Origin: Psammoneis japonica
Lineage: Eukaryota
Assembly (NCBI GenBank): GCA_008632985.1
Contig: QPGO01000082.1
Span: 248,001-312,000, forward strand
Reading direction: 5' to 3'
DNA length: 64,000 nucleotides
The position numbers and the translations under genes are program-made. Shown here piece by piece: positions 6,358-45,470 of the stretch; within the stretch, counting starts at the first letter, position 1; each line of letters begins with the position of its first letter. The notes beneath the pieces are model-generated. The model saw nothing but the letters and a program-made list of their open reading frames with translations. It was not told the origin of the DNA and did no database searches.

Positions 6358-8660
6358 TTAGCCACTGTAAGCAAAGAAGTTCATAAGGATGTCCGTGCCT
6401 GTCTGACGCAAGTCAGCACTGTCCTGTTTGTTGAAACAATCCTGAAAGGGCTTCATCAGCCCAGCCTGTTCCATCTCAAACCAGCACTCAAAGTTCACTG
6501 AGAGTACCTTGAGGGCATCGAATGCCGCGGTCAAAACATGAATATTGACTTGGTGCAACAGCATGGCATTCACAAGTGCGCTACATCCACCAGCTTCGAT
6601 GACGCTCAGGGTATCATCGAGCGATCCCAACACGCAACAAGCGTACTTTTGGATGTTTGGGTTTCTCTCATGACGTTTCATTGCGTCGACAATTATCTTC
6701 AAACTACCAGACTCGGCGATTTCACTGCTGCTCGAGCCAGAGCCGTTTGAAACATCGAGTAACGACGTAAACGCCTCCTCGACAGCAGCAGGCTCTTCCT
6801 GGTTTTGTAACTGTTTCAGCAAATCAGCGACAGAGACGTCGTTCATGCTAAAAGTACGAAGACTACCACCCGTATCCTCGAATTCGTCTCTCAGGGACGA
6901 CACCATGGCTTTTGCCAGTGACATACGATCTCGAACGATGTTGGCGTCATTACGACAAACGGGGTCCACAGAGTGGGTCGCTGCCGATTGGAGCAAAGGC
7001 TCCAAGTCACGATCAAGCTGCAACAGTGTGTGAACATTGACGTCGTTGTATGTGTAGTTCTTGAGGGCAAAGCACGAAACCGACATGACTGACTTGACTG
7101 ACATGTTGGATCGATGAGCTTCCATGGCATTTACCACTGCTTCAAGTTCGTCCCTCGTTGCCCTGGCCACCTGTGAACCATCCACTTCAATCGACACATT
7201 GGACAAAAAGACGACTCCGTCTCGTTGAATGGCCTCTACACGACGTTGGTGATTCATCGAATCCAATACAAACAACTTGACGTCCAGAGCTACGTACTCT
7301 TTTCGAATCTCGGTATCCGGTGACATGGCTCGAAGAGCCCCGATGGCCGCCTCTACCACGTGCGCATCTCTGGGATGCACCTGAAGAGCTCGGAGAACTC
7401 GAGAGACGGAGCCTGCCTTTGACAAGACACGATGATTCTTCGGGCTGCCAGCCAAGGCCCGAATAATACCACAACCACGTTCTTGCACAAGGAGAGCGGT
7501 GAGGTGCATCTTCATGGCTAAAAGAACGTCCTCCAGGGCAGTCGATGAGATGAAACTTTCCCTGACGCCCGCGTTGGTCTTGCAAAAGTTCCACACAGTA
7601 CCAAGACAGAACACTTGAATGGCTTCCGCATCGGGATGCGATTTCATTGCGTGAGTTAATACGTCCACCGCAAAGTCAGGATTGCCAGTTGCTGTTAAGT
7701 CCTTCACCAAGGTGTCAAGTTCATTCAGAGTGCTTTCAATCACCTCCTGAGAGTCTCTGGTGACTTGTCGGGATGAATCTCCAGCAGAGTCGAGAGCAGA
7801 GCCGTTTGATACAGGCTGGGAAGGTGTAGGAGAAGTATGCGTGGAATCGCCTTCTGATTCAGAGTCAGATATGTCCCCAAAGTCAATTTTGGAAATATCC
7901 ACCTCAATCAGAGTGGATCTCCGAGTCGGTCGTCTACGACTGTCAGAGTGGCGTTTGTCAAACATATCCTCCAACGAACTAGCTTCGGAAGCAGCGGAGA
8001 AGCGCTTCCCAGTTTCTGGCTCTGTTCGCTTCCCTTTTTCTGACATTTGAGCACCATGCTTGCTGCTTGAATTGGCAAGATCTTGACTCTTCATCAGGCC
8101 ATCGTCTTCCATATTTGTAACTTCTGCTAAGGTCGACATGGCCTCGTTCACTCTAGATGAAACTGACTGGAGTGACTTTGCCTCTGTTTTTTCGCTCTCT
8201 CAAAGCCAATTCGAGAGGAGGCACTCGTCATACGGTTTGCCATGATTCGACTCACAGAACCGCCACCTGTTCCACTCGACAGTTGCCGGAAACTAGTCAT
8301 CTTCCCGCCGGGTGGCAGTCTCGGGTCTTTTTGCGGGTGACACAGCAAACAGACGCCATTGTAGCTCTCCCCAGTGACGTTTCGAGGTTCTTTACTGGAT
8401 GACAGGGGATTAAATCGAGATCTTTTGACATCATAAATCCGCACTGGTTCTCCCATACAAGTCAAACAAAAGCCCTGGCGCTTTCGGAGCTCTTCAATCT
8501 GTTCTCGACGCAACACCGCACCGTCGCTACTCAGGCACATTTCTGTATATGATAGTGTCATGCGCATCGGATCTCCTGACTTTTTTGGAGGACGTTGGCT
8601 TCTAAACCGCTTACTACTCTTACGCGATGCCACTAGGGCAGCGCGTGGGTCGTCCGCCAT
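6358..8660 (-). CDS. Armadillo-repeat protein with N-terminal Cys-rich domain; frameshift or intron near 8150-8200
   Basis: ORF 8148-8660 (GFCLTC...GVCLLC) abuts ORF 6358-8151 containing repeated AMxxH...VQxxGC ARM-type units. Confidence 0.75.
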
Positions 8661-8965
8661 GGTCCTTGATACGTCGACGGCTGCAAGTAAAAGAAGAGGT
8701 CACCTCTTGCCTCTTGCGACTTCGAAACTTGAAACTTGCGACGAACCTCGTGATGATGTTGTATGCTGTCGTTTTTCTCATAAAAAATTTGTGTTAATGT
8801 CCGCCGGAACTGTACTACTGAAAAGATAACGTAGCCTTCTACGAAAAGGTTTATCTGATATCTACATGTATGAAGTATATTACAAAAAGGTATTTAAGAT
8901 CAGACATAAACTGGTCACCGGTCTTCGGTGACTGCGATGCCGGTAACCTTACAGTGCGACTAACT

Positions 8966-9096
8966 GTAGCTTGCTCTACTCTCTAGCTAGCTAGCTCTCT
9001 AGATAGAGTAGAGCACTGTTTGACAGTGCCAGAGAGCAGGGCCCTAGAGTAGAGAGTGACGGACATGACCTGACTCTCTCTGCCATCTAGCTAGAG
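8966..9096. repeat. CTAG/TAGAG-rich low-complexity tract with an inverted repeat
   Basis: gctctactct at 8973-8982 and its reverse complement agagtagagc at 9005-9014 flank ctagctagctag. Confidence 0.7.
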
Positions 9097-9099
9097 ACT

Positions 9100-12000
9100 C
9101 CTGCCCTTGTCCTGCCTGCAACAAGAAAACAAATGCAGCACAGGGGGGCCTGGGCAGATTTCTGGTGCAAAATTTAAACAGAAAATCGCGTGGGAAATCT
9201 CACTCGTGGTGTTTTTCCCCGTGCTTTGCGAATCACAGGCAGACCATGACCTCAAGGAATCGATTTCAGTCACAACTGTCAGTTGACACTTTGATGTCCA
9301 TTGCACCAACCTCACAAAGTTCAACGAAAGTGAGGTGACCCAATGGGCTTTTGTTGCTTCCTCTCATTCTTCCAAAGAGGAGCAAAGCAACAACAGCCAA
9401 CTGGACAGCTTCATTGCTGTTGATGCATCAAGGATCATGCCTTTGCTGCTGCACTGGCTGTGCTTGTGTGCTTTGCTTGCAGGAAGATGAGTGACCAAGC
9501 GGTGCCAAATGCGGAGGCAGGGCAGCCTCCACCAAGACAGAACACAAACTGGCAAGGCCAAAATGATGCTGCACCACTGGCAGTGCAGCAACCTCTGTCA
9601 GTGGGCAACATGCCACCACTGCCTCAGGCACCAGTGCCACCCATGGTGCCAAAAGTGGTGCCTGCAGTGGGAGGACAGCAAGGAGCACAACAACCTCTGC
9701 AAGCACACAGCCAGCACCTCAGATTGCACCACCACCACCACTGGTCACACGCAATTGCCAGGATCATCACAAAAATGCTGGAGCGAATGATCCATGGCTT
9801 CCATTGGGCCTGTGCAGATTTCATGGCAGACTTTGCAGCCCCATCACAGGGACAGTTCCAACACAACCCGGCTGCCCTTCATGGGCAAGTCATGGCAACG
9901 TCAAGTCATGACATGCCTGTGGCATGCACAACGCACTGTCACACCCAAGATGATGCCAACGAGGGTGTCACACAAGTCATGCACCACATGTTGCTGCTTG
10001 CCTGCTCATGGCAATGGGGCCACTGGAGCCATGGGATGGCAACACCTGTGCTGTTGTGGGTGACATGGCACAGGGACAGTTTGCCCTCACCCCTGTCAGT
10101 GATGCTGCATTTCAGTTGGCGCCACATGGAACATGGGCACCAATGCATGCTGTGCTCCAGCAGCATGTTGCGGTGACACCCAAGGGACTGCACTCACACT
10201 TGTGGTTGCTGATGCCACAGATTCTGAGAGGAGGTGCACACCCAATGCAGCCATTGCAGCCAAAGGTGGCACGCACAAGAGCAGTCCGATGTCATTTGCT
10301 TTAAATGCTGTGACTTGTTTGCCAGTTTTCTTGTCCAGCAGCCGGAACACCTCCACCACTTGGTTCTTGCAGCATGTTATGTGGCACTTGGTCTTCACAC
10401 CCTTTGGACTCAGGATGTTTGCTGTTGCGGGTTTTGACCCCAGCTTCATGTTGCCCCAACCTGGCACAGTGCAGTCCTTGTCCAGGGTGTTCACTCTTGT
10501 GTTTGTGGATGGGCCAATCTTGATCTTTGCCAGTCACACATTGTGTGCCAATCTCCAGCTTGCTGCCATGCCAAGGGCAGAGCAGTTGTCAAGGACCATC
10601 TCATCAGCCTCAATGCCCATGCTGGTCTGGCTCATGCTTGTCTCTGGTCACTCATTGACCAGTTGTGACCCATGCCAAGCAGCTCCCTTGCTCCAGATTG
10701 AACATGTCAATCTGGTGGCATTGATGCTCACATCACTGTCCACCAAAGAGTGGTCATCATTGCCATCTCTTGTCAGTGCATGACTCTGCCCTCTCAGATC
10801 TGGTTTCCTTCTGGTCTTTTTGAAACAGTCATTGGCAGCTGCCTTGTCCTTGTGTTGGCAATCTGGGGACTTGTGGTCTTCCTTGCTGCAACAGTGACAC
10901 ATTGTCTTGCCTTGTGTGTCACCCTTCTGGGCATGGCTCTGGATCTTGCCCTTGTTCCCATTCTTGTCCTCACCATTCTCATTGTCACAATGGTCAGGAT
11001 TCTTGGCACATTTCTGCTTGTTGCCCCACTCATGATTGAGCAATGCATCCATTGCTCTGTCCAGGTCTTTTGGGCATGCATCATTTCCCAGACTGCACAG
11101 TCTCTCACAAAACTTTGCTTCAATGTCTTGCAGCAATGGCCGTTGCTGTTCTTGATGAACATGAAAGCAGTCCAGGCCTCAAATGCCATCTTCTTCAGCT
11201 CAGCCTGCTTGCCAGTGCCACTTGTCTTGTGCTCCTTGGTGTTCTCAATGAACCCATTTAGCATCTTGCCAGCACCCAGACCATCTCTGGTGGAGTCTTG
11301 TTGGTTCTTGAATCTTTTGACAGGCAATCTGCAATGGACTCATTCTCTTGTTGCCTCACCTGCAGTGTGTTCTTCAGGGAAATGCACAGAACAGATGTTG
11401 ATCATCCACAATCATGGCAAATGCCTTTGATTTGTTCTCTTCAAACCGTCTCAGCTTGGCACAGCAATCTTTGGATTCTGCATGATGCTTGCACTCACAC
11501 TGTTTGTTCTTGTGTTCCGTGTCCTTTGGGTCAGCCTTGCATGTGGAGTCATCTTCATTGGGTGTGATCTCTGGCTGTTTCAATTTTGGCTTTTCTGCCA
11601 TAAAGTCAGGATGCGTCATGTCCTCTGGGGACCTTGCCACACATTTGCCCTGTTTAAACTCCTTCTGTGTGCATCTGCTGATCTTCTCTTTGACATCTTT
11701 GCATGTTGCATTGCACATGTTGCTGTTCAGGGTTGAAGGATGGAAAACTTCATTTCATGCTTGAAGGACTTCTTGTTCTTGGTGTGGCTCTTGTTGCCTT
11801 TTCCACCATGACCCTTGTGTTGATCATGGTCTTTCCCAAACCTCCCATGTTCTTTGTTGCTCATGGTGCAGACATCAATGATCTTCTGATGGACTGATGG
11901 TCAGGTGTGCACTCAACATGAGCAAACAACTCTCAAGAGTGAATGTTGAACCGGCAAGTCAATGTCACCAAAAGAAAATCCCACCAGGCTTCCTGTGCAG

Positions 12001-15000
12001 TGCCAATGGCCAAATCTCATGGCAGATCAGGAGGGAGAAACACCAACAGATCTTTTTTAGGACTCTTGTCTCACATGTTGAATGGCTGGAGTGCCTTCTG
12101 CCAAAAGCAAATTTGCTTCTTCTCTTGCCACAAAACTCAAGATCTTCAAGCTTCAGCAATCTCTCAGCTTTGCTTTTGAAGAGAAGACAATGTGATGAGG
12201 ACAAATTGAGCTTCCAAGCTTGACAAGAAGAGCTGCTGTGACTGTTGCCACTGTTTGGCCACTCTAACAAGTTGTCACATTGACTGAGCTGTTTGTTTGC
12301 CACTGTTTGTTTTGGTTTTTCCTTCATGGGAGTCAACTCTTTTACTCCAAGAAGAGCTGGAGTCATGTTGCACTCACTTGGTGATGGCAGCATGATGCTG
12401 ACAGTTTTGCCATGTTCCACCTTCAAGCCCAGTGTCACCTCCCCTTGAGGGCACTGAATGGCAGCCAATGAAAGTTGAGTTGTTTCTGGCTGTGCAATCT
12501 CAGCACTGACAGATGATGTAGAGGCATGCAATGTCATGGCAACAACAGCTCAGTTGAATGATGAAAAGAAGAGTGCAGCAACAATGAAGTGATCAAAGGT
12601 GCTGGTTTTTTTTCTGTGGTGCCCAGAGGGCAGCTTTGCACTCATTTTGTGCCAAATTCATGAAGAAACCTGCGTGCTTTTGTCATTTTTTGACTTGGTG
12701 CGGCAATTCTTGTGGAGGGGCAGAGCGGCTCCCTGTTTGGGTGCCAGGAGCTGAGCTGGGATGAGGGCATGTGTGGGACCCTTAGAGGCACATGTGAGTG
12801 GCTTTGACAACTGCGGTGCTCATGCTTGCATTTGCAAAACCACATGCTTCAGAGCATGGCTTCTGACACTTGTTCGCCAGAGCCATGCAGCTGTCAACCA
12901 GAGTGCTGCCTTGGCTTCTTTGCCAAGCAGCCCATCACATGAGATCATGAAAGGACTGAAATGATGCCATCACCCAAGGCAAGGCTCAAGATGCCTGCTG
13001 GTGGACTTTGGTGATTTTGCAAGAAAAATCAAGTGGACCCATTGCTTGCAGCTGCTGGATTTCCACCCAAGAATGCAGTGCAGTCTGTGCATCACTCCCA
13101 CCTGCCTCATGTCATTTCAGCAAAAAGTGCAATCAACCTGCTTTGCACAGGAGATTTCTTGAAGCACATGCAAGCACTTTTCAGGTGAGCAAAAGTGGGG
13201 CAAGTGGGCTTTGTTAAGAAAAAATGTTGGAACACCTGTGTCACGGGGACAGGGATTGCAAAGAACCTGGGCCCATTGAGGAAAAGATGCTTTGACTCCT
13301 GATGTGGTTGACTCAAGTGACTGGTCTCTGGCAGGGAATTTCCTCTGTCACCAACCCCTTGCCTCTGCTTTCACCTCCTTTTTTAGAGTGAGTAATTTGG
13401 TTTGTCACTTGACATGTTGTTCAGCATCACTGGTCAGCTGTTGTTGTCAATTTGTGAGTTTGTGGTTTGCACTGACAACCTCCAGGTGACATTGAACCAG
13501 AAAATTGATGTTGCCAAAAGGGGGCCCTGCTGAGCTTCCTGTGGCACTTGCCAGGTTGCCTGAAGTTGTCAGCACAAACTCCAAACTCAAAAATGACAAC
13601 AGCAGCAGTTGCCCAGCACAATGCACTGGGTGACAAATCAAATGAGCCAAGTGAGCCAAATGATTCACTCCAAAGTGTGAGATAAAAATGGTGATGAAAG
13701 GTTGGCAACAGAGAAAAATCTTCAGCAAACAGTGGCTTCACTTGGTTCACCACATTTTAGAGCCAAAGCATCTTTTCCTCAGAGGACCCAGGTTTCTTGT
13801 GGTCCCTGTGATCCAGATGTGCCCATCACACCCCTGCAGCTCACACCAGCATTTCTAAAATTGGGGAAAATGGTGCTGGGGAGAATCCCCTCTGGCGGTG
13901 TCGTGGCAACCAGATCAGCACCAGCAAAACCTGCTGTCATCTTGTCTCAGAGCACTGACACCCTCCAAACTACAGCACTGCAGGTTGGCACGTTGTCCCT
14001 CATCAGAAAAGTCAATTGTGTCATAGAACAAGATGGCTGCTCCTTGCACATTCTCCACAAAGCACCCAGCAAAGGTGCAACAGATCCTTTCAAATGGGGG
14101 TCTGCTCAGCGGAACACTGGGCAGCGTCTTGATCGAACCACTGGTTTTCAAGGGAGTCAAATCAGAGAGCTCTGCATTGTGACAAGTCCATCTCAAAATT
14201 GAGCTTGTTGCATTGATGTCACAGTTGAAGGTGAGGCTGGCTGTGCTGCCCAATTGCACCGTCCATGCTCCAAACAAGCCAATGATGACTCACATTGTTC
14301 TTGGGACCTTTGACATTGATCTTCACAAGGGGCCACAAACCCCACATGCATCCATGCCAAAGGTGGGGCAACTGCCTGACAACCATGTGCTCAATTGGCC
14401 AGCAACACTGCTGTTTGTGATGCTCAAGACACCCACCACAATGACAATGACAGCACAACATGCAGCACCATTGAGGCAACCGCCAACAATGTTGCCAGCA
14501 CAATGCTCAAGACAGCCACTGGCAACAATGCCTGCTCAGTGCTTAAAATGTCCACTGACAACATTGCTGGTGCAACAATGGAGAAACTGACTTGCAATGT
14601 TGCGCCAGTGTTGTGCTCATCCAAACCAACATTTGAGTTTGAGTTGATGCTTGCTGACTCCAAACTTCCTTGCACCAAGTTGGGGCATTGCTGCCAGGCT
14701 TGTCATGCAATGGCAAGCAGCTCAAGCTGGTCCACTGTGCACCCAATGGCACTGCTTTGAGTTGTCTGCCCTGTTGGTGCAGAGGTGAGCCCAACAAGGA
14801 AATGACAAATTGCAAACAACAAAAGCAATTGCAGCGGTGCTGCGGTGTGTTGTTTTTTGAAGTTGTGTCCAAAATCTGGTGTTTTTTGTATGGGTTTTTG
14901 TGCAATGGCTTTGGGGTCACCCAGAAATGGGGTCACTGCTTTGCTTGAGGAAGAGAAAGCAAGACATTTTTGTGTGACATTTTTTGCCCAAACAGCAATG

Positions 15001-16315
15001 CCTGCTTTGGCAAGAAATGTGCTGCATGTGCAAAATGGCACACACAAGACACGTGCAAGAAAAAATTCTGCAACCCCATGTGCAATGATTGCCATCTGTC
15101 ACTTGCTGCATGCCTTCTCTGCTGTTGCAGCTGATGCACTCTCCAGAGATGATCATGTTGTGCAATGCAAAACATGGGCCAATGAAGCGTTCACACAGCT
15201 CCTTGTTTGCACAGCTCCATTTTCACACAGATGTGCCAGTCTCGCAATTTCTGCAAAATGTCTTTCAACAACCTGCTGTGCCAGTTGCTTGACAATGTGC
15301 AAGAGGGTTGCAGTGCTGGTCTTCTGACTTGAGCTCCTCAGCAGCTTCAGAAAAAATTGCTGCACTGCATGATTTGAAGCAAAGTTGGTTTGTGATGACA
15401 CCAAACCATCTCATGGCAACAAGGCAGTTGAAACAGATTGACCCCTTGACATGCTCCAAAGATTCTTGGCTGCATGGCTTTCCCCTTCACTTGTGTGGCT
15501 GGGAGTGTGAAAATGGGCACAATGGCTGAGCTCTTGCAGCAGAACAAGGCATGACCTTCTGGGTCTTGGCATGTCAAAAAACAAGATCTGTTGTTGAAAA
15601 AGCCAAAAACAATGCTCAAACATTTGAGTGCTGCTGAGCCAACAGCAGGTTGGGAAACTGAAGAAACAAGAAGAACTTCAGAAAGATTCTTGTCAAGAAG
15701 CAGACAAAGTGCAAGTGCTTGATGCAGAAGAAGCCAAGGAGCACTCTGTGGCAGATGACAACAAAACAGGAGAAGAAGAGCCTCTTGGTTTTTGAACTTG
15801 GACAGCAGCCAGTCAACATCAAAGGCGCTGTTTGTGGGAACAGGCCATGTGCAATTTTAAAAGCAGGGCAGCACCCAGAAGCAGTCAAGGCTGTTCAGAG
15901 TCTAAAGCCCAGCAAAGCATGCAAGTTGCCACAAGAAAATGTTCTGCAATGTGCAGCACAGTGCAGGTTGTCAACAACTGGTGGTTGTTGTCCAGCCAGA
16001 CTCCCAAAGAAAGGCTCAGAAAACACTTCTTGTGCATTTTTCTTCCCTGCAAGGATTGCACTGCAGACAACATCAATGTGTCCACCAGCTGTGGTGCAGC
16101 TGGCAATCATCAACTTGTGTTTGCAGCTCAAATGAAGGGTTTTTGCAACACAGGGTTTCCTCCAAAAACTGTCACAGCTTTGAAGCATCGCCATCTGCAC
16201 AGAGAGAAGTGATTTGCAACAAACCCAGAAGTTGTGTTGTTGAAGATTTGATGGGCACAAAGCTGTTGCTTTGCTGTTTTTCACACAACCACTGCATTGT
16301 TGTTTGTGTCGGTTG
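9100..16315. mobile_element. Old degenerate transposon block, depleted of TpA and CpG
   Basis: Very few TA or CG, saturated with TG/CA; spurious Cys/His-rich ORFs in all six frames; contains a Copia gag relic. Confidence 0.75.
10100..11870 (-). pseudogene. Copia-type gag / zinc knuckle / protease relic
   Basis: Fragments ATCKDVKEKISRCTQKEFKQG, SLGNDACPKDLDRAMDALLNH, CHCCSKEDHKSPDC (CCHC knuckle), VLDNCS (protease-like) and ANILS, broken by frameshifts. Confidence 0.65.
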
Positions 16316-16694
16316 TGCAACATGCGTTGTTATGTACGTATTATATATGTATATCTATATATTAAAAAAAAGTATATTTCAATCGTACGTCAATCGTGGG
16401 TTCGTACGAAGTACAGATCGGTCACACAGAAGTGATCGGATGTCGAGAATCGCAAATGCGATCGTACGATGATGTTGACATCTTATGTGTCAATGTCAAT
16501 CGTATCCGGACAATCTGTTGTCACGATCATATTCTCCGAAAGGCCTTTTGTCTGTAGGAGCAGTACAAAAGGTTTAGGCCATTGAGAACCCATTCGGAGA
16601 AACCCAAAATGATTGCATGGAAATAATTCTCATAATTTTCACTTTTTATACTTGATTCTACTTTCGTTTATACTCGTTCTTCGAGCATAGTGCA
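16316..16694 (+). repeat. Gypsy 5' LTR
   Basis: Near-identical to 21113-21492; begins tgcaa and ends gtgca. Confidence 0.95.
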
Positions 16695-16730
16695 TTGTGT
16701 ATACACACCACAGAAGGTAATAAGTTCAAG

Positions 16731-17885
16731 ATGAAGCTTTCACCTCATGCAACCAACGCTAAAACTTCGTTAAGGCAGGAGAAAATCGTTCCTCAACCGC
16801 TGGAATCGAACTCCGAGCCGAAGAGCCTCAAACCGAGCCAGTGCCTCAAGATGGAGCAACGTTTTCATCCCGAGAAGAAGGATAGCCGTACCTACACCAT
16901 CAATGTCGAGCACTACAAGAAACAAGGTGTCCCCAAGTTTGTCGAATTTCTCAAGAGCTACGATCAACTTCCAGTGGGCCAGAATGTCAGGAAGCAATCT
17001 GACAAGTTTCGTCTCATGCGCATGTTACTCCAAGGAGACGCTCTACGTGCTTTCGAGAATGCGGCAGCGAACCTTGAAGACGAATCTGCAGAAGGAAGCT
17101 TCGAGAAATGCCTGCAACATCTCACGAGGCATGTGTTTCCCAAGAACGCACTTTCGGTGCAGAAACGTTATTTGCGTCGTGATCTCAAGAAGCCGGAGTC
17201 CATGAAAGTACGCGAAATTGCTGCTTGGGTCCAGGAAGTCAACGAAGACCTCAAGTTCTATCCTCCCTTTGGGAAGGAACAGAAGATCGAGGACGACGAG
17301 CTCAAGGACATCCTCTTCAATCTTGCACCTCAAAAGTGGCAGCGTCAGTCGACCGTCCAGGGTTTCGAAATTTTGAAACACACCTGTGACGAGTTGGTTG
17401 AGTTCTTGGAGCGCCCAGAGGTCGCAGAAGACATGTTCGATGGCATTCATGCCAAGGCTGATGGCAGTGGCGGTGCTGCATCAAAAGCCAAGAGTGGCTC
17501 CCAACGTGGTTCCAAAAATGGTCACCAACATGGTGCCGAAAAATCTCAGTCCGAGAAGTGGTGCATTTCATGTGAGAAATCCACTCACAACACGGACAAG
17601 TGCTGGTCGATCAAAAGACTTGCGAAAGAACGCCATGGGAACTGTGAACCCGACCCGAAACGGCGCCGTTCAAATGGCAATCGCACGTGGTCTCGTCGCG
17701 ACAACGACAACGCCGCTCGCAAAGAAGAGTTGAATGCTGTGGCGATCCAAGCAGTTCAAAAAATGCTCAAAGCGAGTTCCTCGAACAATGATGAAAAGCA
17801 CAAGAGCAAAGATTGTGATTCTGATGCCCTTGACGAGGAGAATGATCAGTTTGAAAAAATGATGCGCAGCGATTCTGAGGAATGA
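16731..17885 (+). CDS. gag: Gypsy gag
   Basis: LLQGDAL...VFPKNALSVQKRYLRR capsid-like region; CISCEKSTHNTDKC knuckle. Confidence 0.85.
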   Translation: MKLSPHATNAKTSLRQEKIVPQPLESNSEPKSLKPSQCLKMEQRFHPEKKDSRTYTINVEHYKKQGVPKFVEFLKSYDQLPVGQNVRKQSDKFRLMRMLLQGDALRAFENAAANLEDESAEGSFEKCLQHLTRHVFPKNALSVQKRYLRRDLKKPESMKVREIAAWVQEVNEDLKFYPPFGKEQKIEDDELKDILFNLAPQKWQRQSTVQGFEILKHTCDELVEFLERPEVAEDMFDGIHAKADGSGGAASKAKSGSQRGSKNGHQHGAEKSQSEKWCISCEKSTHNTDKCWSIKRLAKERHGNCEPDPKRRRSNGNRTWSRRDNDNAARKEELNAVAIQAVQKMLKASSSNNDEKHKSKDCDSDALDEENDQFEKMMRSDSEE

Positions 17886-20800
17886 CTTGCACCGCAAGAG
17901 GAGTCTTGCGCTCCACTGGACATCAGGAAGCCCAGAAAAAGGGCCAAAGTAATTTGTGCTAGTCCAGCAGTCGTCGCCCATGTGAACACTTCATCAGGCA
18001 AAGCGAAAAACAAGCCTCTGCACATTCTCCTCGATGGCAGAACATCGTCAACCACAATTTTGCGCAAATTCACGCGGAAACTCAGAACCAAAGCATCCGC
18101 CACCAAACTCTGGGAAACCAAAGGAGGGCTCTTTACGACTGACAGTCGATGTAAGATCCAATTCTCCTCACCCGAATTTGACAAACATGAGATGATCGAA
18201 ACAACGGCACATGTTGATGGCTCCCCTTCTTCTTCAAGTTGTTGTGACATGATCATGGGACGCGACTTAATGTCAAGTCTTGGGATGACATTGGACTTCT
18301 CGAATGAAGAGATTAAATGGGAAGATGCAACTGCTCCTGTGAAGAATGTTGATGCACTCTTCGATGCCGATGTTTTTAAGTTGATTGCCGATCATGTTGA
18401 GGAATCTCATGCAGTGATTGGTCTTAATGACAGGGTCAATCGGATCCTTGACTCAGACTGTCACACTGCAAACCTCAACAATGTGACTGCAGCAGCTGCT
18501 CATCTAACTCCTGAAGAGCAGAAGCAGCTGAACTTCCTCTCAAAAAGATTTGAAAACCTTTTCGATGGTTCTCTGGGCAAATGGACCAGGAAACCGGTGG
18601 ATTTGAAGTTGAAATCGGGCGTGAGTCCGTGTCATGCCAAACCATTTCCCGCACCACAAGCCTTGGAGGCGACCACTCGTAAGGAGGTTGAAAGACTGTG
18701 CAAGTTGAAAGTCTTAAGAAAAACAAACTGTTCTGAATGGGCGGCTCCAACCTTTGTTCAACCCAAGAAAAATGGCAGAGTTTGGTTCTTGTCCGACTTT
18801 CGTGAGCCAAACAAGAGGTCAATTCGCACTCCGTTTCCTCCACCCAACATTCAGGACATGCTGCAGAAGCTCGAAGGCTTCATGTGTGCAACGTCCCTAG
18901 ATTTAAACATGGGACACTGTCATGTCGAATTGACGCCGCGTGCACGTCGCTTGTGCACGATCGTCATGCCTTGGGGCAAATGTGAGCACTGTAGACTCCC
19001 GATGGGAATCTGTGGAGCTCCAGACATTTTCCAAGAGCACATGAGTGAGCTCATGGCAGGTCTGGAGTTCGTCAGAACTTGTGTTGACAACACATTGTGT
19101 CTTGCAAAAGGTGATTTTCAAGACCACCTCAAGAAGCTTGAAACAGTGTTCTTGCGCCCAGAACAAGCCGGATTGAAGGTCAACGCCGAGAAGTCCTTTT
19201 TTGCTAAACCCGAAGCAGACCATCCAGGCTTTCACATCACCCACAAGGGCATCAGTCCGATTCCAAAAAAAAGTAGAAGCGATTCACGCGATCGCAACTC
19301 CTAAAACTCGCAAGGAATTGCGACGCTTTGTCAGCATGATCAACTGCCATCGAGACATGTGGCCTCGACGATCTCATGTTTTAGCTCCTTTGGCCAAACT
19401 CACTTCTGCCCAAGTAAAGTGGCAATGGACCGAAACAGAACAAAAAGCCTTTGAAAACATGAAGCGCGTCATCTCCAAAGACACACCACCATCACACCCG
19501 AATTTTAACACACCCTTTGAGATGTGCACCGATGCTGGCAATTCTCAATTGGGGGCGGTTGTTGCTCAGAAAAACTGACCAATTGCCTTCTACAGCCGCA
19601 AGCTGAATGGAGCACAGACGCGTCACACTGCAACGGAAAAAGAGCTGTTGACCACAGTGGAAACGTTAAAAGAGTTCCGCAATGTGCTGTTTGGCCAACA
19701 GATGAACACATGTGCGGATCACAAAAATCTCACACACAAAAAATTTCACAACGGACAGAGTCATGCATTGGTGTCCAATGACAGAAGAATGCAGCCCCAA
19801 AATGACATGCCTTGAGGGCAAGGCAAATGTTGTCGCAGATGCGATTGGCCGACTTGCCATGAAGAAAATAGAACCTGTGGAAACCCTCAGCACAGAAGAG
19901 CTGGCTGAAAAGGTCCCACCAAAATCCTGCGACAATGTCTTTCCGTCAAATTACAAAGTTCTTGATTGTGAACAAAAACGGGACAAAGACACTCTCTCCC
20001 AATTGTCAAATGAGACGTTTCATGCGAAGACTTTTCGTGGAGGCGAGCGAGACCGGTTGCTCGTGTGTCATGAGGACAAAATTGTCGTCCCGAGGACGTT
20101 GCAAAGGCAGTGACAGATTGGCATCATGTGCACCTTCTTCACCCTGGCACAAATCGAACAGAAGAAACAATCTCACAACACCTGTGGTGGTCCACCTTGC
20201 GTGAAGACATACGAAAATACGTGTCGAGATGTGAGGCGTGCCAAAAATTCAAAAAGAAACACAAGAAATGTGGACATTTGCCTCCTGAGTGCGCAGAATC
20301 CGCACCATGGGAACGACTGTGTGTGGACCTTGTTGGGCCACACAAAATGCGTCGCAAGGGAAAGAAAGAACCCCCAGTCCTGAAATGTTTGACAATGATC
20401 GATCCAGCAACCGGATGGTTTGAAGTTGTGGAAATCCCAAATGAGGAGTCCATGACTGCAGCTGGACTGCCAGAACGAACATGGTCAAGCAGACATCCTT
20501 GGCCATCGTCAATTGCATGTGACGGTGGAAGTGAGTTCATCGGACACCAATTTAGAGAAATGGTGCAAGATGATTGTGGCATTAAAGTCAAGCCTGTAAC
20601 TACACGAAATCCACAAGCAAACGCAATTGTTGAACGCGCACATCAAGCACTGGGGAACATGCTCCGTACATTTGATTTGCAACATACACCTCTAGATGCT
20701 GAGGATCCTTTCGCTGGAATGCTGTCAGCGGTAGCATTGCGGTACGTTCTACGTATCATACCACTACGCAAGCTACACCAGGACAACTAGTCTTCAATAG

Positions 20801-21086
20801 AGACATGATATTTAACGTCCAACATGTCGCAGACTGGAAATTAATCCAGCAGCGAAAACAAGATATCATAAATAAAAATAACGCTCGAGAGAATGCTCGA
20901 CGTACTCCTTACACGTACAGAGTAGGAGAAAAGATACTACTCGAGAAAGACTCGCAAAAATTAGAACAGCCCTATGTTGGACCGTACGTAATAACAACGG
21001 TACATACTAATGGCACAGTACAGATCAAACGCGGTGACGTTATTGACACTGTCAATATTCGTCGGATAATACCGTTTAACGACTGA
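17886..21086 (+). pseudogene. pol: Gypsy pol (protease, RT, RNase H, integrase), hypermutated and frameshifted
   Basis: ILLDG protease; WAAPTF..PKKNG; SLDLNMGHCH; RLPMG; CVDN at 19080 in place of YVDD; TDA..QLG; HPG...C..C; CVDLVGP; NPQANAIVER; PYVGPY tail. Frameshifts in A-runs near 19265, 19575 and 19740. Confidence 0.9.
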
Positions 21087-21112
21087 CTCTAATGTGCAAT
21101 TAGGGAGGCGAA

Positions 21113-21492
21113 TGCAATATGCGTTGTTATGTACGTATTATATATGTATATCTATATATTAAAAAAAAAGTATATTTCAATCGTACGTCAATCGTGGGTT
21201 CGTACGAAGTACAGATCGGTCACACAGAAGTGATCGGATGTCGAGAATCGCAAATGCGATCGTACGATGATGTTGACATCTTATGTGTCAATATCAATCG
21301 TATCCGGACAATCTGTTGTCACGATCATATTCTCCGAAAGGCCTTTTGTCTGTAGGAGCAGTACAAAAGGTTTAGGCTATTGAGAACCCGTTCGGAGAAA
21401 CCCAAAATGATTGCACAGAAATGATTCTCATGATTTTCACTTTTTGTGCTTGATTCTACTTTCGTTTATACTCGTTCTTCGAGCATAGTGCA
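21113..21492 (+). repeat. Gypsy 3' LTR
   Basis: Matches 16316-16694 with about 10 transitions and one A-run indel. Confidence 0.95.
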
Positions 21493-24400
21493 GTTGGATG
21501 TTTGACTCTGGACACCACAATGTGTTCCCTGTGAAAAGTTTGGCATGTTGGAGAGCTGATGTTTGGGCGACACAAGATGAAGTGTCTTGCATGATGGACA
21601 ATCTGTCTCAAAAGGCTGTGTTTGTTTTCAAGCTTCATTTGTCAAAGTTGGTTGGAAGGATTTGAAAATGCAAAACATGCAACTTGTGAGCTGGCAGCAC
21701 ACTGACACACTCGGTTTGCACACAACTGTCTGGCACCAGCCCCACTTGCTCTGTCAAAGTCAGGTCCCAAACAATGTGCTTCATCATTGCTTTCTTCTTT
21801 GTGCTCCAATTCCATCAGTTGGTCATTGTGTGCTTTGTTGCCTGGAAAGTCTTTCACACAACCAGCAGCTTTGACCAAATGCTTTGTGCAAGTCTCTTGC
21901 TTGTGACACACTCTTTCTTTAATCTTGCGGCTGGCCTCTTCAAAGCAGGCTTCACATTGCTGCCACAACTGCCAAGCACCTTGTCAGGATTTTGCAGCAT
22001 TCTTAGATGCTCATCTGCTGCAAAGCTGTGCTTGCACAAGGCGACATTCTTTCCAAGAACAACCATGAGTGCCAACTCCAGTTTTGGTTCTTCCACACCA
22101 ACAACTTCAACAGCAAAGGAGCACAAGCTGGTCTTTGAGAAACACTCCAGCAGGTTTTCACATTCTTGCAGGGCACCTGTGAGTTTTGAGCTTGGTGCCT
22201 TTCTGTGCTTCTGGATTGAGAGATCAGCTGGGACAGTCAGCAGCACCCACGTCAAGTGCCTTGTGCTTTGGAAAAAATTGAGTGTTTTCTTTTGTTGTTG
22301 TTGTTGGGGCATGGTTGCTGGCACTTGGCATGCCCCAGTCTGCTGCTCAAGAGTGCTGGTGCAAAGCAAGGTGAGCACTTCTTACACTTGCCCAGGAGAA
22401 AGAAATGCACCCAATGTGGGATTTCTTGATTTGCTGCATTGGAGCAAATGGCAGTGAGGCCACAGCATCTTTTGGATGTTGGCAAAGAGTGCTGCCACAG
22501 CAGCAGCAACTCTGTCTTCAGCAACAGCCTCAAGCCAGAATTTCTGCACTTTTAACTGACACAAATGTTGGTGCTGAAACCCACTTGATGGCACTTGCAA
22601 GAAATCCACACTGGTGCAAACACAACACAGCTGCACATGCTGCGCTGGCTGTTGTTCATTTTCTGGTGCTGTGCCAGAGTCACACACCAAAACAAGGTGT
22701 CTCCAACCCTTGTTTGTGCATTTGGCATTTTCACAAACTCTAAATCATTGGCTTCAACTGGGCCACAATGTGTCATTGTGCAACTCTTGCTGTGCAGCCA
22801 CTTGCCCACTCAACTTTTTTCCATCTGCATCCAGTGTGGCAAAGATGGAGAGCAGGGGGCAACAACACCACACTGTTGCAATGGTGTTTCACCTCAGCAG
22901 CTTGCACACACACTGTTGTGCTCCCAAGAATCAGAGAATTTGAGGTGACTTCATGCTGTCATCTTCATCTGCAAGCAGCAATGGCAGTGCAAATGAAGCC
23001 ATGCCAACAATGGATTTCTTCCTCCCAAAGCAAGCAGGAGAAAAGAGCCCAAGTGTGGTTGGCATTGAGACAGACAGACAAGCCAGCAAAAATCAGAGCT
23101 GGTCAGTCCTGCTGCCTGTGACATGCTGTCAACGAGTTGTTGCATTGGGTGCTTGTGATGTGCACAGCTTTCTTTTCAACTCTGGCAACAAAAAACATGC
23201 ATCAACTGCATTTGAAAGAGTGCCAGAAGCAAGAATGCAGTTCTTTGTTGCAGCACAGAAGACAACCACAGCGGGTTGGACAGACATGGACACTTGGTGC
23301 CACTGGACTCTGCACCTTGGCTCACACCATTGGCTTGAGCACTGCATGGTCCTGGCAGTGTGCAGGGCAATGGGTGAAACAGGTGGATGAGCATGAGGAC
23401 CTCCTGGTTGCCTTGCACAAAGATGTGTTGTTTCACCTCACAATTCTCATGGGTTTGCATGGCACTGCACACTCCCTTTGCCTGTGCATCATTTTGGCAT
23501 GAACATCTGAGCCTTTGTCAGCTTTTTTCAGATGCTGCTGACTTTGGATGGAATTTCTTTTTTGCTCAGACAGGAAGAACACATCAGTGGCAGGCTGCCT
23601 CTGGTGCAGAACATCTCTTCACCAAACACAGCAATTTTCTCACTTGGGAAATCTGTGCTGAGAGTTGAACAAACATTGGCTGTCTCATTGAGAGAAATGA
23701 TTTTGACAAATTGTCACACTGTCACAGGTGCCCAGCTTGCAAGGGAAATGAAAAATGTGGAGACAACAGCAGCGCTGGGTTGGGCAAACAAAAGCTCACA
23801 CCCTGTGAGCAGCACACCACCTTTGCAGGTTTTTTTGACCCACTGACAGCTGCTGGAAGGCAAGGCAAGCTGTGAAGCTTGGCATCACAGCACTGCAATG
23901 ACAGGCACATTTTGAGGTTTGTGGAAGACATTTTCAAAGAGAAACCCAGAAGCATGCAGAAAGCAGTGTTCTGGAGCTTGGTGATGCAAAGAAAGCAGCA
24001 AATGAGTCTCCTTCAGGGACCACAATTTTGCCTGTTGCAGCTTCCACGGAGTGTGTGCACTGAAGATGTTGCAACTTGCTTCAAAAACAAATGCAAAGCA
24101 ATTGCAGGCATCACAGCAGTGGTTCCACACATTTCCTGATTTTTCAACATCACCATGCATCACCTTTTGACATTTCATTGAGAATCAACCAACCGTGGCT
24201 CCAAAGCATGTGGTGCTGGGATGGGAATCTAGCAAATGTGCTCTGGGAATGTCGACCATCTTGTTGTGGCAAATGATTTGACACATTGTTGTGCTGCCAT
24301 GAGTGGCCAGCTTTCCAGGAAAACAAAACATGTGGAAATGATGGATGCCGCTGGGGTGGGAAATGAAAGCTGACACCCTGCATGCAAGCAACACATCCAT

Positions 24401-26750
24401 GCACTGTTTCTTGCAGGTTTTTTTGACCTGCTGACAACAGCTTAAAGGCTGGACATGCTGTGGAGCTTGACAGTGTGATGCTGCTACAACAAACACATTT
24501 TGGCTTTTACAGAAGTTGTTTCTGAAGTTCAGAGAAGCATGTGAAAGCAACATCCTGGTGCTCAGTGTTGTGGGGAAATTGGCAAATGAATCTCCTTGAA
24601 AAACCCCATGACTTTGCCCACTGCAGTTTCTGGTTTGTGCACAGAACATGTTGCATCTCATTCCAAGAACATTCAAAGCCATTGCAGGTGCCATCGCCTG
24701 CCCCCCTGCATGTTCTGATTTTTCCACATTGCCAGGTGGCACCGCTTGATGTTTCATTAAGAGTCGCCTGACCATGGCTTCAAAATGTGATGGGACAGAA
24801 ATCTGACTCATGTGCTCTGGGAACACATCTCAGTGCTGCCGCAGAAAGCAAGGGTGCCATGGTCTCCAGCCTCTTTGCTATGGCATTGCTTCTTTTTGGC
24901 TCTCTCAGAGATCACCAAAAATGGCAATTGCTGTCTCAGATGAAGTGACATGGCAAAAGATCAATTCCACCCTCAACGCCATTTGCCACACCCTCTGACA
25001 TCTGGAGCAGCACATGGCAAACCTTTGAACAAATCTTGATTGACTTGCACACATGTTCTTCCAACACAATCCAAAGAGATGAAAGACATCAAAGGTTGCA
25101 GAGCTGAGAATCAGATGCAGAAGACCACCCAGAACCACAAAGCTGCTGTGGCGAGCAATGAAACATTGAAGAGTGTGACTTCTAAAGCCTCCACTCTGTT
25201 CTCACCTGCAAGATCCCTTGCCAAAAAGATTAGAAAGGTCGCTGGATGAAATTGTTGCATGAGAGCAGTGTGCGGAAGCTTTGGTTTGGGCACCCAACTG
25301 AAAGACCTGACAAGAGAAGAGCAAAAGGGAAACTCTCAACTTGCAAGAAATCCAAAAACTGGAGGCTGCACTTCCATGATGCAGCTGCACTGGGTTTGAG
25401 GATGAAGAACTGTCAAAAAACAGAAACAAGAGACCACCCCAAATCACACAGTTGCTGCAGTGAGACAAAAGACATGAAAGGTCACAGAGCTGAGAAACAG
25501 ACACAGAAGACCACCCAGGATCACAAAGTTGCTGTGGCGCACAATCAAATGTTGCAGAGTGTGACTTCCAAAGCCTCCGTTCTGTTCTCACCCATGAGAT
25601 TCCTTGCTAAAAAGATTGGAAAGGTTGCTGGGTGAAGTTGTTGCATGAGGATAGCACGCAGAAGCTTTCAATTTGGGCACCCAATTGAATGACCTGACAA
25701 GAGGGGAGCAAAAGGGAAACTCTTGACTTGCAAGAAATCTAAAGCTGAAAGGTTGCACTCCCTTGATGCAGCTGTGTTGGGTTTGACGATGAAGAGCAGC
25801 TGTCAAGAAACAGACACAGGAGACCACCCTGAATGATCACACAGTTGCTGCGGCAAGCAATGAAATGTTGAAGAGCACGCAACGGCCTTCAAGGCCTCTG
25901 CATTGTTCTTGCCTGTAAGATCCCTGGCTAAAAAGATCAGTGGGACAGTTGAGTGAAATTTTTGCATGAGAGTGGTGCACGAAAGCTTTCAGTCAGGGTG
26001 TCTGACTGGACGACCCAACAAGAGGGGAGCAAAAGAGAACTCTCGACATGCAAAAACCCAAAACAAAATGACGGGAATCCTGTGATGCAGCTGCAGTGGG
26101 TCAAGGATGAAAAGAGCACTTCTTGTGTGGACAGTTGCAGAAAAAGCACAGCACTTGACAGAGCAGATGGACTCCTCCAGTCTGTGGGATGTTGCTGGGT
26201 GCCAAGAACACACCACAGAAAATGAGGCACATCACTTGGCCAAGGCCGAAAGGCAAATTGACAGGACATCACTGGGTGGTCAACTCGGGACAGCTGATGG
26301 GCTGATTGAAGACCTGCAGAAGGCTCCTGAAAAGCACATCCCTTGGCTTTGCGGATGATCAAGGCAATGGGCATTGCCAGGTGTCAATCACAGGACAGCT
26401 GATCAGCTTGTCAATGGCACCACAGAGCTCAAGGTGCAGCCAATGAAAAGGGGTTGCCAAAAAATGCTGTGTCCAAGTGTGGACATTCCATTGGCTCTTT
26501 ATGTGGAAGTGGCTGATGTCAGTGATGGAGTTGGATCGGATTCGGATTCAGCGCAACAGTGGGAGCACTTTGATTCGGACTTGGTGCAGTGGTGCAAGAG
26601 GCAGAGCAGGTGAGCCAATGGCCGATTCGAATTGGTGAGCAGGAGATGGTGTCGGATTGACTGTGCAGCAGGATCGGGCTTGGCACGCTGTCGCCATGTC
26701 CCTCCAATGAACCCTCATCAAATTGATGGTTGCTGTGTGGGACAAGAGAG
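21493..26750. mobile_element. Continuation of the old TpA/CpG-depleted repeat block
   Basis: Same TG/CA-saturated composition as 9100-16315; no family assignable by eye. Confidence 0.65.
25085..26110 (+). repeat. Degenerate tandem repeat, about 3 copies of 320-390 bp
   Basis: Recurring agaccaccc, aaaaagat, ttgcatgag and gagcaaaag.gaa.ctct blocks near 25085, 25471 and 25810. Confidence 0.75.
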
Positions 26751-37400: not shown

Positions 37401-39060
37401 TGGAGGTGGGGTCAAGTCAGCAGGTGCCTTGTTTGAGTCCATGGCAGGAAACTTGGGAAGGCATGAGTGGAGATGGCAGGGCATGAGCTGCCAGAGGAGG
37501 CACTTGAAGGGGCAAAGGAGGTGACTGGGAGGTGAAAACATCAGAGGCTGCTTGAAAAATTTTGCACTTGGGGGTCTTGAAATGCATCAACCTTGACTTG
37601 TTGGTCTTCAACCACAGTGCACTGGTGTGCACTGTCTTTTTCCAAAAGGGTGGTCAGCTCTGGAGATCCCATGGCAGACAGCAAGCCCTGATTGGCAGGA
37701 ACAGTGCTGCACCCATCCTCAAAAGCAACTTGAAATTGAAGGGTGATGGCTCCCATTTCAATGCCATCTGGCTGCTCAGGAGCACCAGCAGGGCCACTGG
37801 CAGCGTTGCTCTGCACTGAGTTCCACATGCAGACACACCATTTTGGTGACTGCTTCTTGCCACTGGCAATTTTCTTTTCAAAAGTGCTGATGGGGTGCCC
37901 CCAAACACACTGTGCTGCACGTTCAACTTGCTTGGTTCCTCAATTTTAAGTTTTCTTTTGTGTTTGTTCTGTGTCTTTGTTGGCTTCATTCTTCTCAACC
38001 ACTGCTGTGACAGACAATGATGCTCAATTCTCTGTCACCCTTTTTAACTTGATTTGGCTGCTGATGTGTGCCCTGCATCTCTTTGACTGCGCACTTCAAA
38101 CTGTGGCATTCATCAGACAAACAGTGTCCACAGCCTGGCACACTGCTCAACACACAACTGTGCATTTTTTGACTGCTGTCTTGAGCCAAGGATTGCAGAT
38201 GTTTGAGCCAAGGATTGCAGATGTTGTCTTTTTCCTGCTGGTGCTTGTGCAGAACTTTCTTGTTCTTTGTCAATTTCTAAAGCCTGCCTTTGGTGGTGGC
38301 CTTGACCTGCTCAATGCATTGTTTGAGAAAAAACTCAGACATTGTGGGACAAACAAGCAACACATTCAACTCTTGCTGCCATCTGACAACAACAAAAAAT
38401 TGAAAATGAGCAAACCTTGGCCAGGCAAGAAGACAAAGCATGTGATGCCAGGTCAGCCAAAGTGTGATGCAAGACTCACAAATTGTTTTTTTGCACCAAA
38501 GCTGTTGTCTTCTCACAATTTGTGTGAAAAAACAGAGGGTTGACTGGCAACTGATCAGGTGCATGTCACAAATGTGTTGATCTAAAATGATGCACCTGGT
38601 CAGCTGCCAGTCAAGCCCATTTTTCACAAAGACAAAATTTGCTGCAAAAGATGGGCGGACAATTTCTTGGTGCTGGTGTGCAGAGTTTCCATGCAATGAC
38701 TCTGCAGTGCAAAAGATTGCTGTTGTGTCAACTCACAAGGTTTGCCTTCTTGTTCTTGTGCCCCCCTGTTGCTGGCCTTCCAGGGTGAGGTTTGCACTCA
38801 CAGCAGAATCCTTTGCTTCCCAGGGTGTGGCTTTCCAGCAATGCTCTCTCCTTTTCAGAGGGGGTGAGGAGCTCCACCATGGCAATGGCTGGAAACCCAT
38901 GTCTTTGCCATGGCTGATGAGTCCCAGTCATTTTTGCTGACAAAAGCTGTGTCTGCCATTCATGAAGAGCATCGCTTGGGCAACCTTGGCACTTCTCATC
39001 TGGCAGCGTTGAAAGCTCGATTAGACTGTGTCTCGATGTGCATTCCAAACTCGAGCTCAT
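34460..39060. mobile_element. TpA/CpG-depleted degenerate repeat block
   Basis: Abrupt compositional switch between two normal genes; TG/CA-saturated. Confidence 0.65.
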
Positions 39061-44900: not shown

Positions 44901-45470
44901 GGGCGGCGGGGTGCTGTGCTGGCACAGGGAAATGATGCGCGCTCACTTTGGTGAAAAAGACCAAGCCATTTTGAGCCAGCCAGAAAAGCAAGTGTGTGAA
45001 TTGGTCAAAAGCTGCCTCTTGCACAACCCAAGCAGGAGCACTTTGCAGCCAACGTCACTGTTGCAAGAAACCACAAACCAGCACACACCACCCACCCTGC
45101 ACCCAAAGGGCCAGTCTTGAGAGAGATGCTGCTGGCCTGTCTGAGTGCTTGTCTACTGTACAGTTGCCCAGCTGCTTTCAACTGCTCTCTTGCAAGCTGC
45201 GGCCACCAGCAATCTCCCCAATGTGAAGCCATCCAAATGGCGACCTGAGAGATGATGATAAAAAAAAAACAGAGCACCAGTGACACTCTTGTGCTTCTAA
45301 CCCTCACCAAACACACCAGGATGGCTGATTTTGAGGTTTTGAAAAAGTCACACCAAGGCTCTTGAAAGGAGGGCCTCGGAGCAAAAAGAAGAAAAACATT
45401 CTCGCGCCGTTGTTCGGAGTTGTTCAAGTCAAGAAGATCTTGATGGGAGCTGATGATGACAACAAATTAC
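41960..45470. mobile_element. TpA/CpG-depleted block containing a short Copia-like LTR relic
   Basis: Compositional switch; internal direct repeats and gag fragment. Confidence 0.7.
42516..44268 (+). mobile_element. Internally deleted Copia-like relic: LTR-like repeats ~42516-42788 and ~44011-44268 around gag remnants
   Basis: Shared acaatgttgcagtgaaagatc, gcaatccatgcggcaagtt and cagttggcaagc; aaaggag purine tract before the second copy; KEAFNTIVGQCTKAIRHKVE and LLKDLHQQF..VDNCP gag-like fragments. Confidence 0.7.

Follow-up and report, generated by a model that had tools for sequence, protein, structure and literature searches.

How can a single retrotransposon have lost most of the TA dinucleotides from its interior and kept them at both ends? 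This question is raised by a Ty3/Gypsy long terminal repeat (LTR) retrotransposon in the diatom Psammoneis japonica. We analysed 64 kb of contig QPGO01000082.1, here called the window, and all coordinates are window positions. A single element of 5.2 kb occupies 16316-21492 on the plus strand. We show that a mutator turning TA into TG or CA works on resident DNA, and on both strands. As to how a converted core came to lie between clean ends, we tentatively favour an inherited mosaic, in which an old hypermutated core was placed between fresh ends by recombination or by trans-mobilisation. We put its chances somewhat short of even, and the competing explanations are weighed against it below.

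TA loss inside the Gypsy element

The element has direct LTRs of 379 and 380 bp that start with TG, end with CA and are identical in 369 of 380 columns. The gag frame contains a CX2CX4HX4C knuckle, and the Pfam domains come in the order RVT_1, RT_RNaseH_2, Integrase_H2C2 and rve, with the integrase after the reverse transcriptase. The same Pfam set is found in relatives. The pol region is disrupted by four frameshifts, at 19265, 19738, 20102 and 20736, each within a short homopolymer run. The target-site duplication GTTG is found at 16312-16315 and again at 21493-21496.

TA is distributed very unevenly along the element. The observed/expected ratio (o/e) of TA is 0.87 in the 5' LTR (16316-16694, with 32 TA) and 0.85 in the 3' LTR (21113-21492, with 31 TA). 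The adjoining 16695-17300 holds 16 TA (o/e 0.41) and 20581-21112 holds 44 (o/e 1.06). Between these, 17301-20580 retains 27 TA in 3280 bp, an o/e of 0.13, and TG and CA together have an o/e of 1.45. CpG is near normal along the entire element (o/e 0.77-1.7). A model with two change points was compared with a uniform one and gave a log-likelihood ratio of 82.6, against a maximum of 11.7 in 200 permutations. The right border of the converted core lies within 20597-20667 and the left border between 17259 and approximately 17383. The left border is blurred because in relatives, too, the C-terminal part of gag is naturally low in TA (0.2-0.4). It could not be sharpened with the gag relatives, which have no conserved tyrosine between 17260 and 17885. 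The clean ends are nearly equal in length, approximately 0.94-1.07 kb on the left and 0.83-0.90 kb on the right.

The three internal parts can thus be delimited as follows. The unconverted 5' internal end (16695-17259) comprises the leader and the N-terminal part of gag. It retains tyrosine at 16893, 16914, 16959, 17169 and 17259, and eight of the 16 TA are in contexts that the mutator readily converts. The converted core (17260-20596) encodes the remaining part of gag with its zinc knuckle, the protease, the reverse transcriptase, the RNase H and most of the integrase. The unconverted 3' internal end (20597-21112) encodes the C-terminal tail of the integrase, with tyrosine retained at 20916, 20973 and 20985, and ends in the polypurine tract GGGAGGCGAA at 21103-21112, which runs up to the 3' LTR.

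A preliminary description of this locus had claimed that the interior of the element was converted and that its ends were protected. The patchy TA loss is real and highly significant, by the TA map and the change-point test as well as by the tyrosine columns described below. All peptide strings listed in that description are present in the window, and those of the converted part correspond to FQYATS, MGYYH, GKYEYQ, RAYIDD and RELNKR in the consensus of the relatives. Its left border, at approximately 17380, is widened here to the interval given above, and its right border, at approximately 20720-20730, has to be moved to 20597-20667. Both LTRs do keep TA, as it stated, but they are not untouched, as nine TA conversions separate them. 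Protection of the ends in an absolute sense is therefore not shown, since the LTRs have been hit, in one place by a burst at five sites.

Comparison with relatives indicates what was lost from the core. A protein search gave 564 relatives at E <= 0.001, of which the best 120, with 45-57% identity, were used. Within 18243-20575 there are 26 columns at which tyrosine is conserved among these 120 relatives. The window has cysteine (TGY) at 11 of these columns, histidine (CAY) at 10, phenylalanine at three and tyrosine at two. The tail after 20720 has five such columns, and here three hold tyrosine and none holds cysteine or histidine (core versus tail, Fisher P = 0.0015). Reversal of the change from TA to TG or CA accounts for 50 of the 467 conserved columns of the core and for none of the 73 of the tail; in 20 unconverted relatives the same reversal accounts for 59 of 10841 columns. 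The catalytic YIDD reads CVDN in the window, the product of two TA conversions and one CpG transition.

The DNA of the relatives gives the same picture. In 41 full-length metagenomic relatives, the TA o/e of the core ranges from 0.60 to 1.09 with a median of 0.82, compared to 0.15 in the window. Their tails range from 0.63 to 1.30, and the tail in the window has 1.07. None of 1117 stretches of 600 bp, taken from 77 relatives, has a TA o/e below 0.20. Judged by these sequence comparisons, the TA loss of the core is the result of mutation rather than of a codon habit. We also considered whether the family is intrinsically poor in TA, and rejected this, as the overall TA o/e of the relatives is 0.59-1.18 and their tyrosines are retained. 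A protein search, at near length, for copies from the same species gave a best match that was 59-60% identical.

Three of 240 metagenomic relatives (P0278, P0315 and P0313) are themselves poor in tyrosine, with 0.6-1.5%. Of their conserved tyrosine columns, 8 of 12, 7 of 10 and 4 of 9, respectively, hold cysteine or histidine, and the process therefore seems to operate in other environmental hosts of this Gypsy clade. Four metagenome loci (L009, L044, L051 and L068) have a gag match after pol, or two copies approximately 5.1-5.5 kb apart, an arrangement that suggests tandem or circular forms of related elements.

A mutator that works on resident DNA

The two LTRs of the Gypsy element differ by nine conversion events at eight TA sites, one change of CpG to CpA and one length difference in an A run. 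We found no substitution besides these TA and CpG types. Nine of the 10 substitutions are of the TA-to-TG/CA type (P = 2.7e-6), and nine of 72 TA sites (12.5%) have been converted since insertion. One TA site has become TG in one of the LTRs but CA in its partner. Such opposite outcomes within a single element prove, from the sequence alone, that the process acts after integration.

The 5' LTR has four converted TA sites, at 16321, 16495, 16580 and 16618-16619, and the CpG-to-CpA change at 16592. In the 3' LTR, five consecutive TA sites were converted within 33 bp, at 21416-21448, one of them to CA and four to TG. The adjoining TA sites and the other 31 TA of this LTR are intact, and the tract is shorter than 79 bp. 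Five consecutive sites out of 36 are not expected by chance (P = 8.5e-5). These conversions are a local burst that took place in situ, after insertion.

The conversions are not spread evenly over the LTRs. The TA-rich LTR starts (16331-16386 and 21128-21184), with 15 TA each and many of them ATAT, have no conversion at any of 30 sites. Eight of the nine LTR conversions are found in the second half of the LTR. The probability of this is approximately 0.008 if the events are independent, and it is not significant if the burst is counted as one event; the comparison was made post hoc.

Both strands are hit in the core as well. The 51 conversions that we reconstructed there comprise 32 TG and 19 CA without strand clustering (25 runs, P = 0.58), and changes from tyrosine to cysteine and to histidine are about equally frequent, 11 versus 10. 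Repeat-induced point mutation (RIP) was rejected as the cause. Its direction is the opposite one, and the converted blocks of the window have a TA o/e of 0.03-0.17 and a TG+CA o/e of 1.4-2.1. An artefact of base calling at modified bases was considered since both TA and CpG collapse to TG or CA. We set it aside because independent read contigs match the flanks that are poor in TA and CpG at 96-100% identity.

The mutator has a preference for certain sequence contexts. Relative to the gene stretches of the window, no ATAT survives, and the survival of ATAC, ATAG, ATAA and GTAC is 0.02-0.09. It rises to 0.2-0.24 for GTAA, CTAG and CTAC, to 0.41 for CTAA and to 0.69 for TTAA. Conversion is thus favoured where the target has an A two positions before it or a T immediately after it. 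Of the 27 TA that the core retains, 24 have refractory neighbours, whereas half of the TA in the ends have susceptible ones. The refractory residue of the core and the susceptible TA kept in the ends indicate that the core is saturated and that the ends are essentially unexposed.

A second retrotransposon of the window, a Copia element (RVT_2) on the minus strand at 54461-61579, was converted over its full length. Its TA o/e is 0.13, LTRs included. The LTRs (54461-54745 and 61293-61579) show CA versus TG at five sites, in addition to six CpG-type differences. The same TA was thus converted independently in both LTRs after integration, and the Copia LTRs were converted to saturation in place. 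The open frame (54693-60479) has 1928 codons with 0.5% tyrosine and 8.5% cysteine plus histidine. It is retained because, by the genetic code, TA loss cannot create a stop codon. The TA-poor block extends past the Copia LTRs, over 53749-54460 (712 bp, two TA) and 61580-62212 (633 bp, three TA), and ends sharply beside the neighbouring genes. Either the process spread outwards from the element, or Copia landed in an older TA-poor block.

The whole window alternates between gene stretches, blocks depleted in TA only and blocks depleted in TA as well as in CpG. The TA o/e is 0.45-0.77 in the gene stretches and 0.03-0.17 in the blocks, and the edges are sharp. TA alone was lost from the Gypsy core, from 49489-51592 and from 53749-62212, which contains Copia. 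Blocks with loss of both TA and CpG are found at 9201-16311, 21497-26600, 34601-39000 and 42001-45400; there the o/e is 0.03-0.2 and TG+CA is approximately twice the expected value. These look like older targets, in which CpG decay came after the TA loss. The Gypsy element is embedded in one such domain of 12 kb, fully converted, which extends over 9.2-16.3 and 21.5-26.6 kb. Its left part (9201-16311) has a TA o/e of 0.05, a CpG o/e of 0.10 and a TG+CA o/e of 1.89, without any Pfam match. Its right part (21497-26600) has dinucleotide ratios of 0.05 for TA and 0.13 for CpG.

Recognisable mobile elements were found in only two of the converted blocks. A Pfam search with nine open frames, seven of them from blocks poor in TA and CpG, gave no family for any of those seven. 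A tblastn search using 40 Gypsy relatives against the rest of the window gave no matches. The block at 49489-51592 (2.1 kb) lies between two host genes and has approximately 10 TA, normal CpG and sharp borders, but neither LTRs nor a long open frame. The sole ambiguous base of the 64 kb is an N at 3374.

Origin of the converted core

The preliminary description had proposed that the mutator works in kb-scale tracts or is excluded from open LTR-promoter chromatin, and had named a recombinant or mis-assembled mosaic as the alternative. This interpretation is borne out in part. A mutator with kb-scale tracts is supported by the sharp-edged blocks at 49489-51592 and 53749-62212, by the four blocks that have lost both TA and CpG, and by the five-site burst. 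Exclusion from LTR-promoter chromatin is not supported as a rule. The Gypsy LTRs are hit at nine of 72 TA, the Copia LTRs are saturated, and the Gypsy element lies inside a converted domain. The mosaic named as the alternative fits at least as well, in view of an exposure clock and of frameshifts of the core that are shared within the family, both described in the following.

We used read contigs from one public run (0.55 of sampled words matched), which were placed on 12000-26000. The set contains 657,387 contigs, 140.7 Mb in all, and appears to be a short-read assembly. The summed depth of the Gypsy family is 6400-16750, compared to approximately 100-230 in the flanks, or approximately 50-100 times higher, and the family is therefore large. 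One contig of depth 127 (flanks 72-158) joins 16311 to 21493 with four shared letters and thus represents the empty site, so that the insertion is polymorphic or hemizygous. The insertion is young, on the basis of this contig and the lack of LTR substitutions outside TA and CpG sites.

The frameshift forms found in the window are carried by 60-80% of the family depth, and at all four places a minority form restores the frame. In the A runs at 19265 and 19738 this form has one base fewer, in 29% and 26% of the depth, respectively. At 20102 it has one extra A (20%), and at 20736, just beyond the converted core, one extra T (40%). As the broken frame is the majority form, the frameshifts were inherited. 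Joints of internal deletions are numerous in the family, with at least 15 listed and 59 more present, which indicates that template jumps are frequent. Among the 40 places listed out of 656 variant ones, only 20471 is a core place where every read contig contradicts the window, which has CA where all 32 read contigs (depth 3603) have TA. If the whole core had been converted privately, approximately 95 such disagreements would be predicted. The single one fits an inherited core, which is a weak indication as the rule by which the 40 places were selected is unclear.

In the flanks of the element, 0-4.5% of the letters are different in the read contigs and in the window, TA sites included. The 38 differences listed there comprise 13 of CpG type, five with TA in the reads and TG or CA in the window, and 20 others. 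As differences of both types occur, both fast processes are still segregating between haplotypes or strains.

CpG damage is raised in the same tract as TA loss. Among detectable half-sites, 10 of 75 in the core and one of 90 in the LTR pair show CpG-type damage (P = 0.0028). At conserved columns, CpG-type changes amount to 10 of 467 in the core against 29 of 10841 in the 20 unconverted relatives (P = 2.8e-6), and invariant residues are among those damaged. The Gypsy LTRs have lost 12.5% of their TA and one of 45 CpG. The core has lost approximately 82% of its TA (0.15 compared with the median of 0.82 in relatives). The Copia LTRs have lost approximately 80%, based on an ancestral count estimated under the assumption of equal numbers of concordant and discordant conversions, and show their six CpG-type differences over approximately 21 CpG per LTR. 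By TA as well as by CpG, the exposure of the core appears to equal that of the old Copia element, and that of the Gypsy LTRs to be approximately a tenth of it. The figures for the LTRs, the core and Copia fit a single exposure clock with two ages.

We suggest the following history. The core of 3.3 kb would have passed through TA-to-TG/CA hypermutation and CpG decay before the present copy was made. It would come from the defective, frameshifted lineage that makes up the bulk of the family, and approximately 0.9 kb at either end would derive from an unmutated template. The hybrid of dead and live sequence may have formed when the reverse transcriptase switched templates between co-packaged RNAs, or by ectopic gene conversion. 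After insertion, the mutator of resident DNA would have begun on the new copy, with nine hits in the LTRs and at least one private hit in the core. Since an element can be reverse transcribed and integrated only if its LTR, primer-binding and polypurine ends work, clean ends around a ruined core are the form expected of such a hybrid. It is our inference that the core conversions are older than the insertion, and so is the way in which core and ends came together. The mosaic fits the exposure clock, the shared frameshifts and the recent date of the insertion, as well as the frequent template jumps and the occurrence of just one private hit in the core. The pattern of the founder of the lineage must in turn have come from recombination or from a hit limited to a tract, so that the idea of tracts is shifted one step back.

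Several observations weigh against this history. The pattern of TG and CA found in the window has so far been seen in no second copy, and the mosaic is unproven. A stretch of 32 letters from another, internally deleted copy (window 19505-19541) reads CA at two TA sites that read TG in the window, which shows that cores are also converted independently, copy by copy. The near-symmetrical clean ends could also reflect an error of assembly or a zone about either LTR, and the excess of CpG damage is as compatible with methylation of the core alone, in place. The fourth frameshift (20736) falls just outside the converted tract. Finally, mismatches of other kinds to the consensus of the relatives occur at 64 of 467 columns in the core and at 10 of 73 in the tail, 13.7% in both, and ordinary substitutions hence give no sign of an older core. 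Such equality is expected if the TA and CpG processes far outrun ordinary mutation.

Targeting in situ at a scale below that of the element, the main proposal of the preliminary description, is a rather unlikely explanation, though several observations speak for it. Here the mutator and CpG methylation would be aimed at the core alone and approximately 0.9 kb at each LTR would be spared, for example because active LTR promoters keep nearby chromatin open or because guiding small RNAs cover only the core. The mutator does act in place and in sharp-bordered blocks, the burst of five sites within 33 bp is clustered action, and the core of another copy was converted independently. Raised TA loss and CpG loss share one tract, and in the TA-rich LTR starts none of 30 TA was hit compared to nine hits elsewhere in the LTRs, a comparison made post hoc. 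The process known from the chlorarachniophyte Bigelowiella natans is likewise confined to domains and episodic, according to the text available from a preprint (10.64898/2026.01.13.699255). However, under targeting in situ the core must have received at least approximately 20 times the dose of the LTRs within 5.2 kb, and the LTRs adjoin a fully converted flank. The hit rate of the LTRs is that expected from their age, and in Copia the LTRs have reached saturation. It is also left unexplained why the frameshifts, and apparently the majority of core alleles, are common in the family instead of private. That a TA-specific DNA mutator of a diatom converts the body of a young retrotransposon in place, with resolution below the element and sparing approximately 0.9 kb per active LTR, we regard as slightly more doubtful still.

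A chimera created during assembly or polishing is improbable. In that case only the approximately 0.9 kb at each end, anchored by the flanks, would be genuine and the core would have been filled in from majority copies; the real copy at the locus might be unconverted throughout. The high family depth would favour such an error, at approximately 50-100 times the depth of the flanks, and the near symmetry of the clean ends is what flank-anchored reads would give. The core also holds the majority allele at all four frameshifts, and few of its places are contradicted by all contigs. However, a majority fill would not yield the allele at 20471, which is present in none of the 32 read contigs. The LTRs were not homogenised and have 10 locus-specific substitution differences of the expected type. 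There is no gap in the stretch, and what the empty-site contig lacks is precisely the element with its two LTRs.

It is very improbable that selection alone produced the pattern, with whole copies hit evenly in each period of residence, only copies with working ends mobilised in trans, and conversions accumulating in the core as by a ratchet but being purged from the ends. The core would be dispensable for a trans-mobilised element, and an intact frame, found in 20-40% of the read depth, could supply the proteins. Against this, the ends show no TA depletion (o/e 0.85-1.06), 32 TA are kept in the most susceptible contexts, and all 123 TA sites would need protection. Hardly credible, finally, is editing of RNA or complementary DNA during retrotransposition by an ADAR-like or APOBEC-like enzyme from which structure, or early synthesis of the second strand, protected the ends: TA would fit the 5' U preference of adenosine deaminases, a point also raised in the preprint (10.64898/2026.01.13.699255), but both strands are hit equally by the counts given above, the LTR pairs diverged after integration, and the stretch upstream of the polypurine tract is untouched though it should be the most exposed in an APOBEC-type gradient.

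Known mutators and significance

The element and the mutator share features with several known systems. Like RIP, the mutator causes transitions at the DNA level, prefers a dinucleotide, ruins mobile elements in place and leaves blocks of odd composition. RIP of ascomycete fungi changes CpA to TpA and creates stop codons, whereas here TpA is destroyed, no stop codons arise and the frames stay open. Like the action of APOBEC3G, the pattern is a deaminase-like footprint on a retroelement, with a density that is uneven along the genome. Hypermutation of retroviral cDNA of the APOBEC3G type is G-to-A, on one strand and before integration. Here, in contrast, the changes are found on both strands, and the divergence of the LTRs followed integration.

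The element also resembles recombinant and non-autonomous LTR retrotransposons that are mobilised in trans. These share with it the working ends, the defective interior, a mostly defective family and many internal deletions. Unlike in known elements of this kind, the defective interior is here marked by the footprint of a host mutator, which makes the mosaic visible.

The closest likeness is to Bigelowiella natans. In the available text of the preprint, mutation-accumulation lines show A-to-G and T-to-C changes solely at TpA, at approximately 6e-7 per site per generation, and these mutations are restricted to two regions of integrated viral DNA and to some of the lines (10.64898/2026.01.13.699255). 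A further 124 TpA-poor clusters are described in that genome, and an ADAT2-like deaminase is the proposed candidate enzyme (10.64898/2026.01.13.699255). Clusters poor in TA and rich in CA and TG are, as far as that text goes, enriched in reverse-transcriptase domains. The words LTR, Gypsy, CpG and boundary are absent from the preprint text that was available, and a context preference of the mutator is not mentioned in the part examined (10.64898/2026.01.13.699255).

As in the portion of the Bigelowiella natans account available, the changes in the window are confined to TA, give TG or CA depending on the strand and occur on resident nuclear DNA; foreign or mobile sequence is hit in defined blocks, and here the host gene stretches are spared. 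Unlike in that account, the host is a diatom, the targets are LTR retrotransposons and conversion is nearly saturated. In agreement with such a host, all named relatives of an actin-related protein encoded by the host are from pennate diatoms (47-53% identity), and the best match without a name is 64% identical. The oldest blocks are also depleted in CpG, and one element is a mosaic. Full-text searches found no report of TA-specific hypermutation in a diatom. Judging by full-text searches on TA loss in transposable elements, the chlorarachniophyte preprint of 2026 (10.64898/2026.01.13.699255) is so far the only report of TA-specific hypermutation directed at foreign DNA.

In the window this signature recurs in a diatom, where it affects LTR retrotransposons and has reached saturation. 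To a kind of mutator that was first reported in 2026, the present one thus adds a new example, from a diatom and with retrotransposons as targets. The long open frames of dead elements, in which TA loss makes no stop, can mislead gene prediction. If the core was converted in place, its borders show where the targeting signal ends. If such targeting below the scale of the element is true, the footprints would be a fossil map of that signal, be it chromatin state or guide RNAs, and a RIP-like defence would be common to distant algal lineages. If instead the core was inherited, elements ruined by this defence would still spread with borrowed fresh ends, which bears on how effective the defence is.

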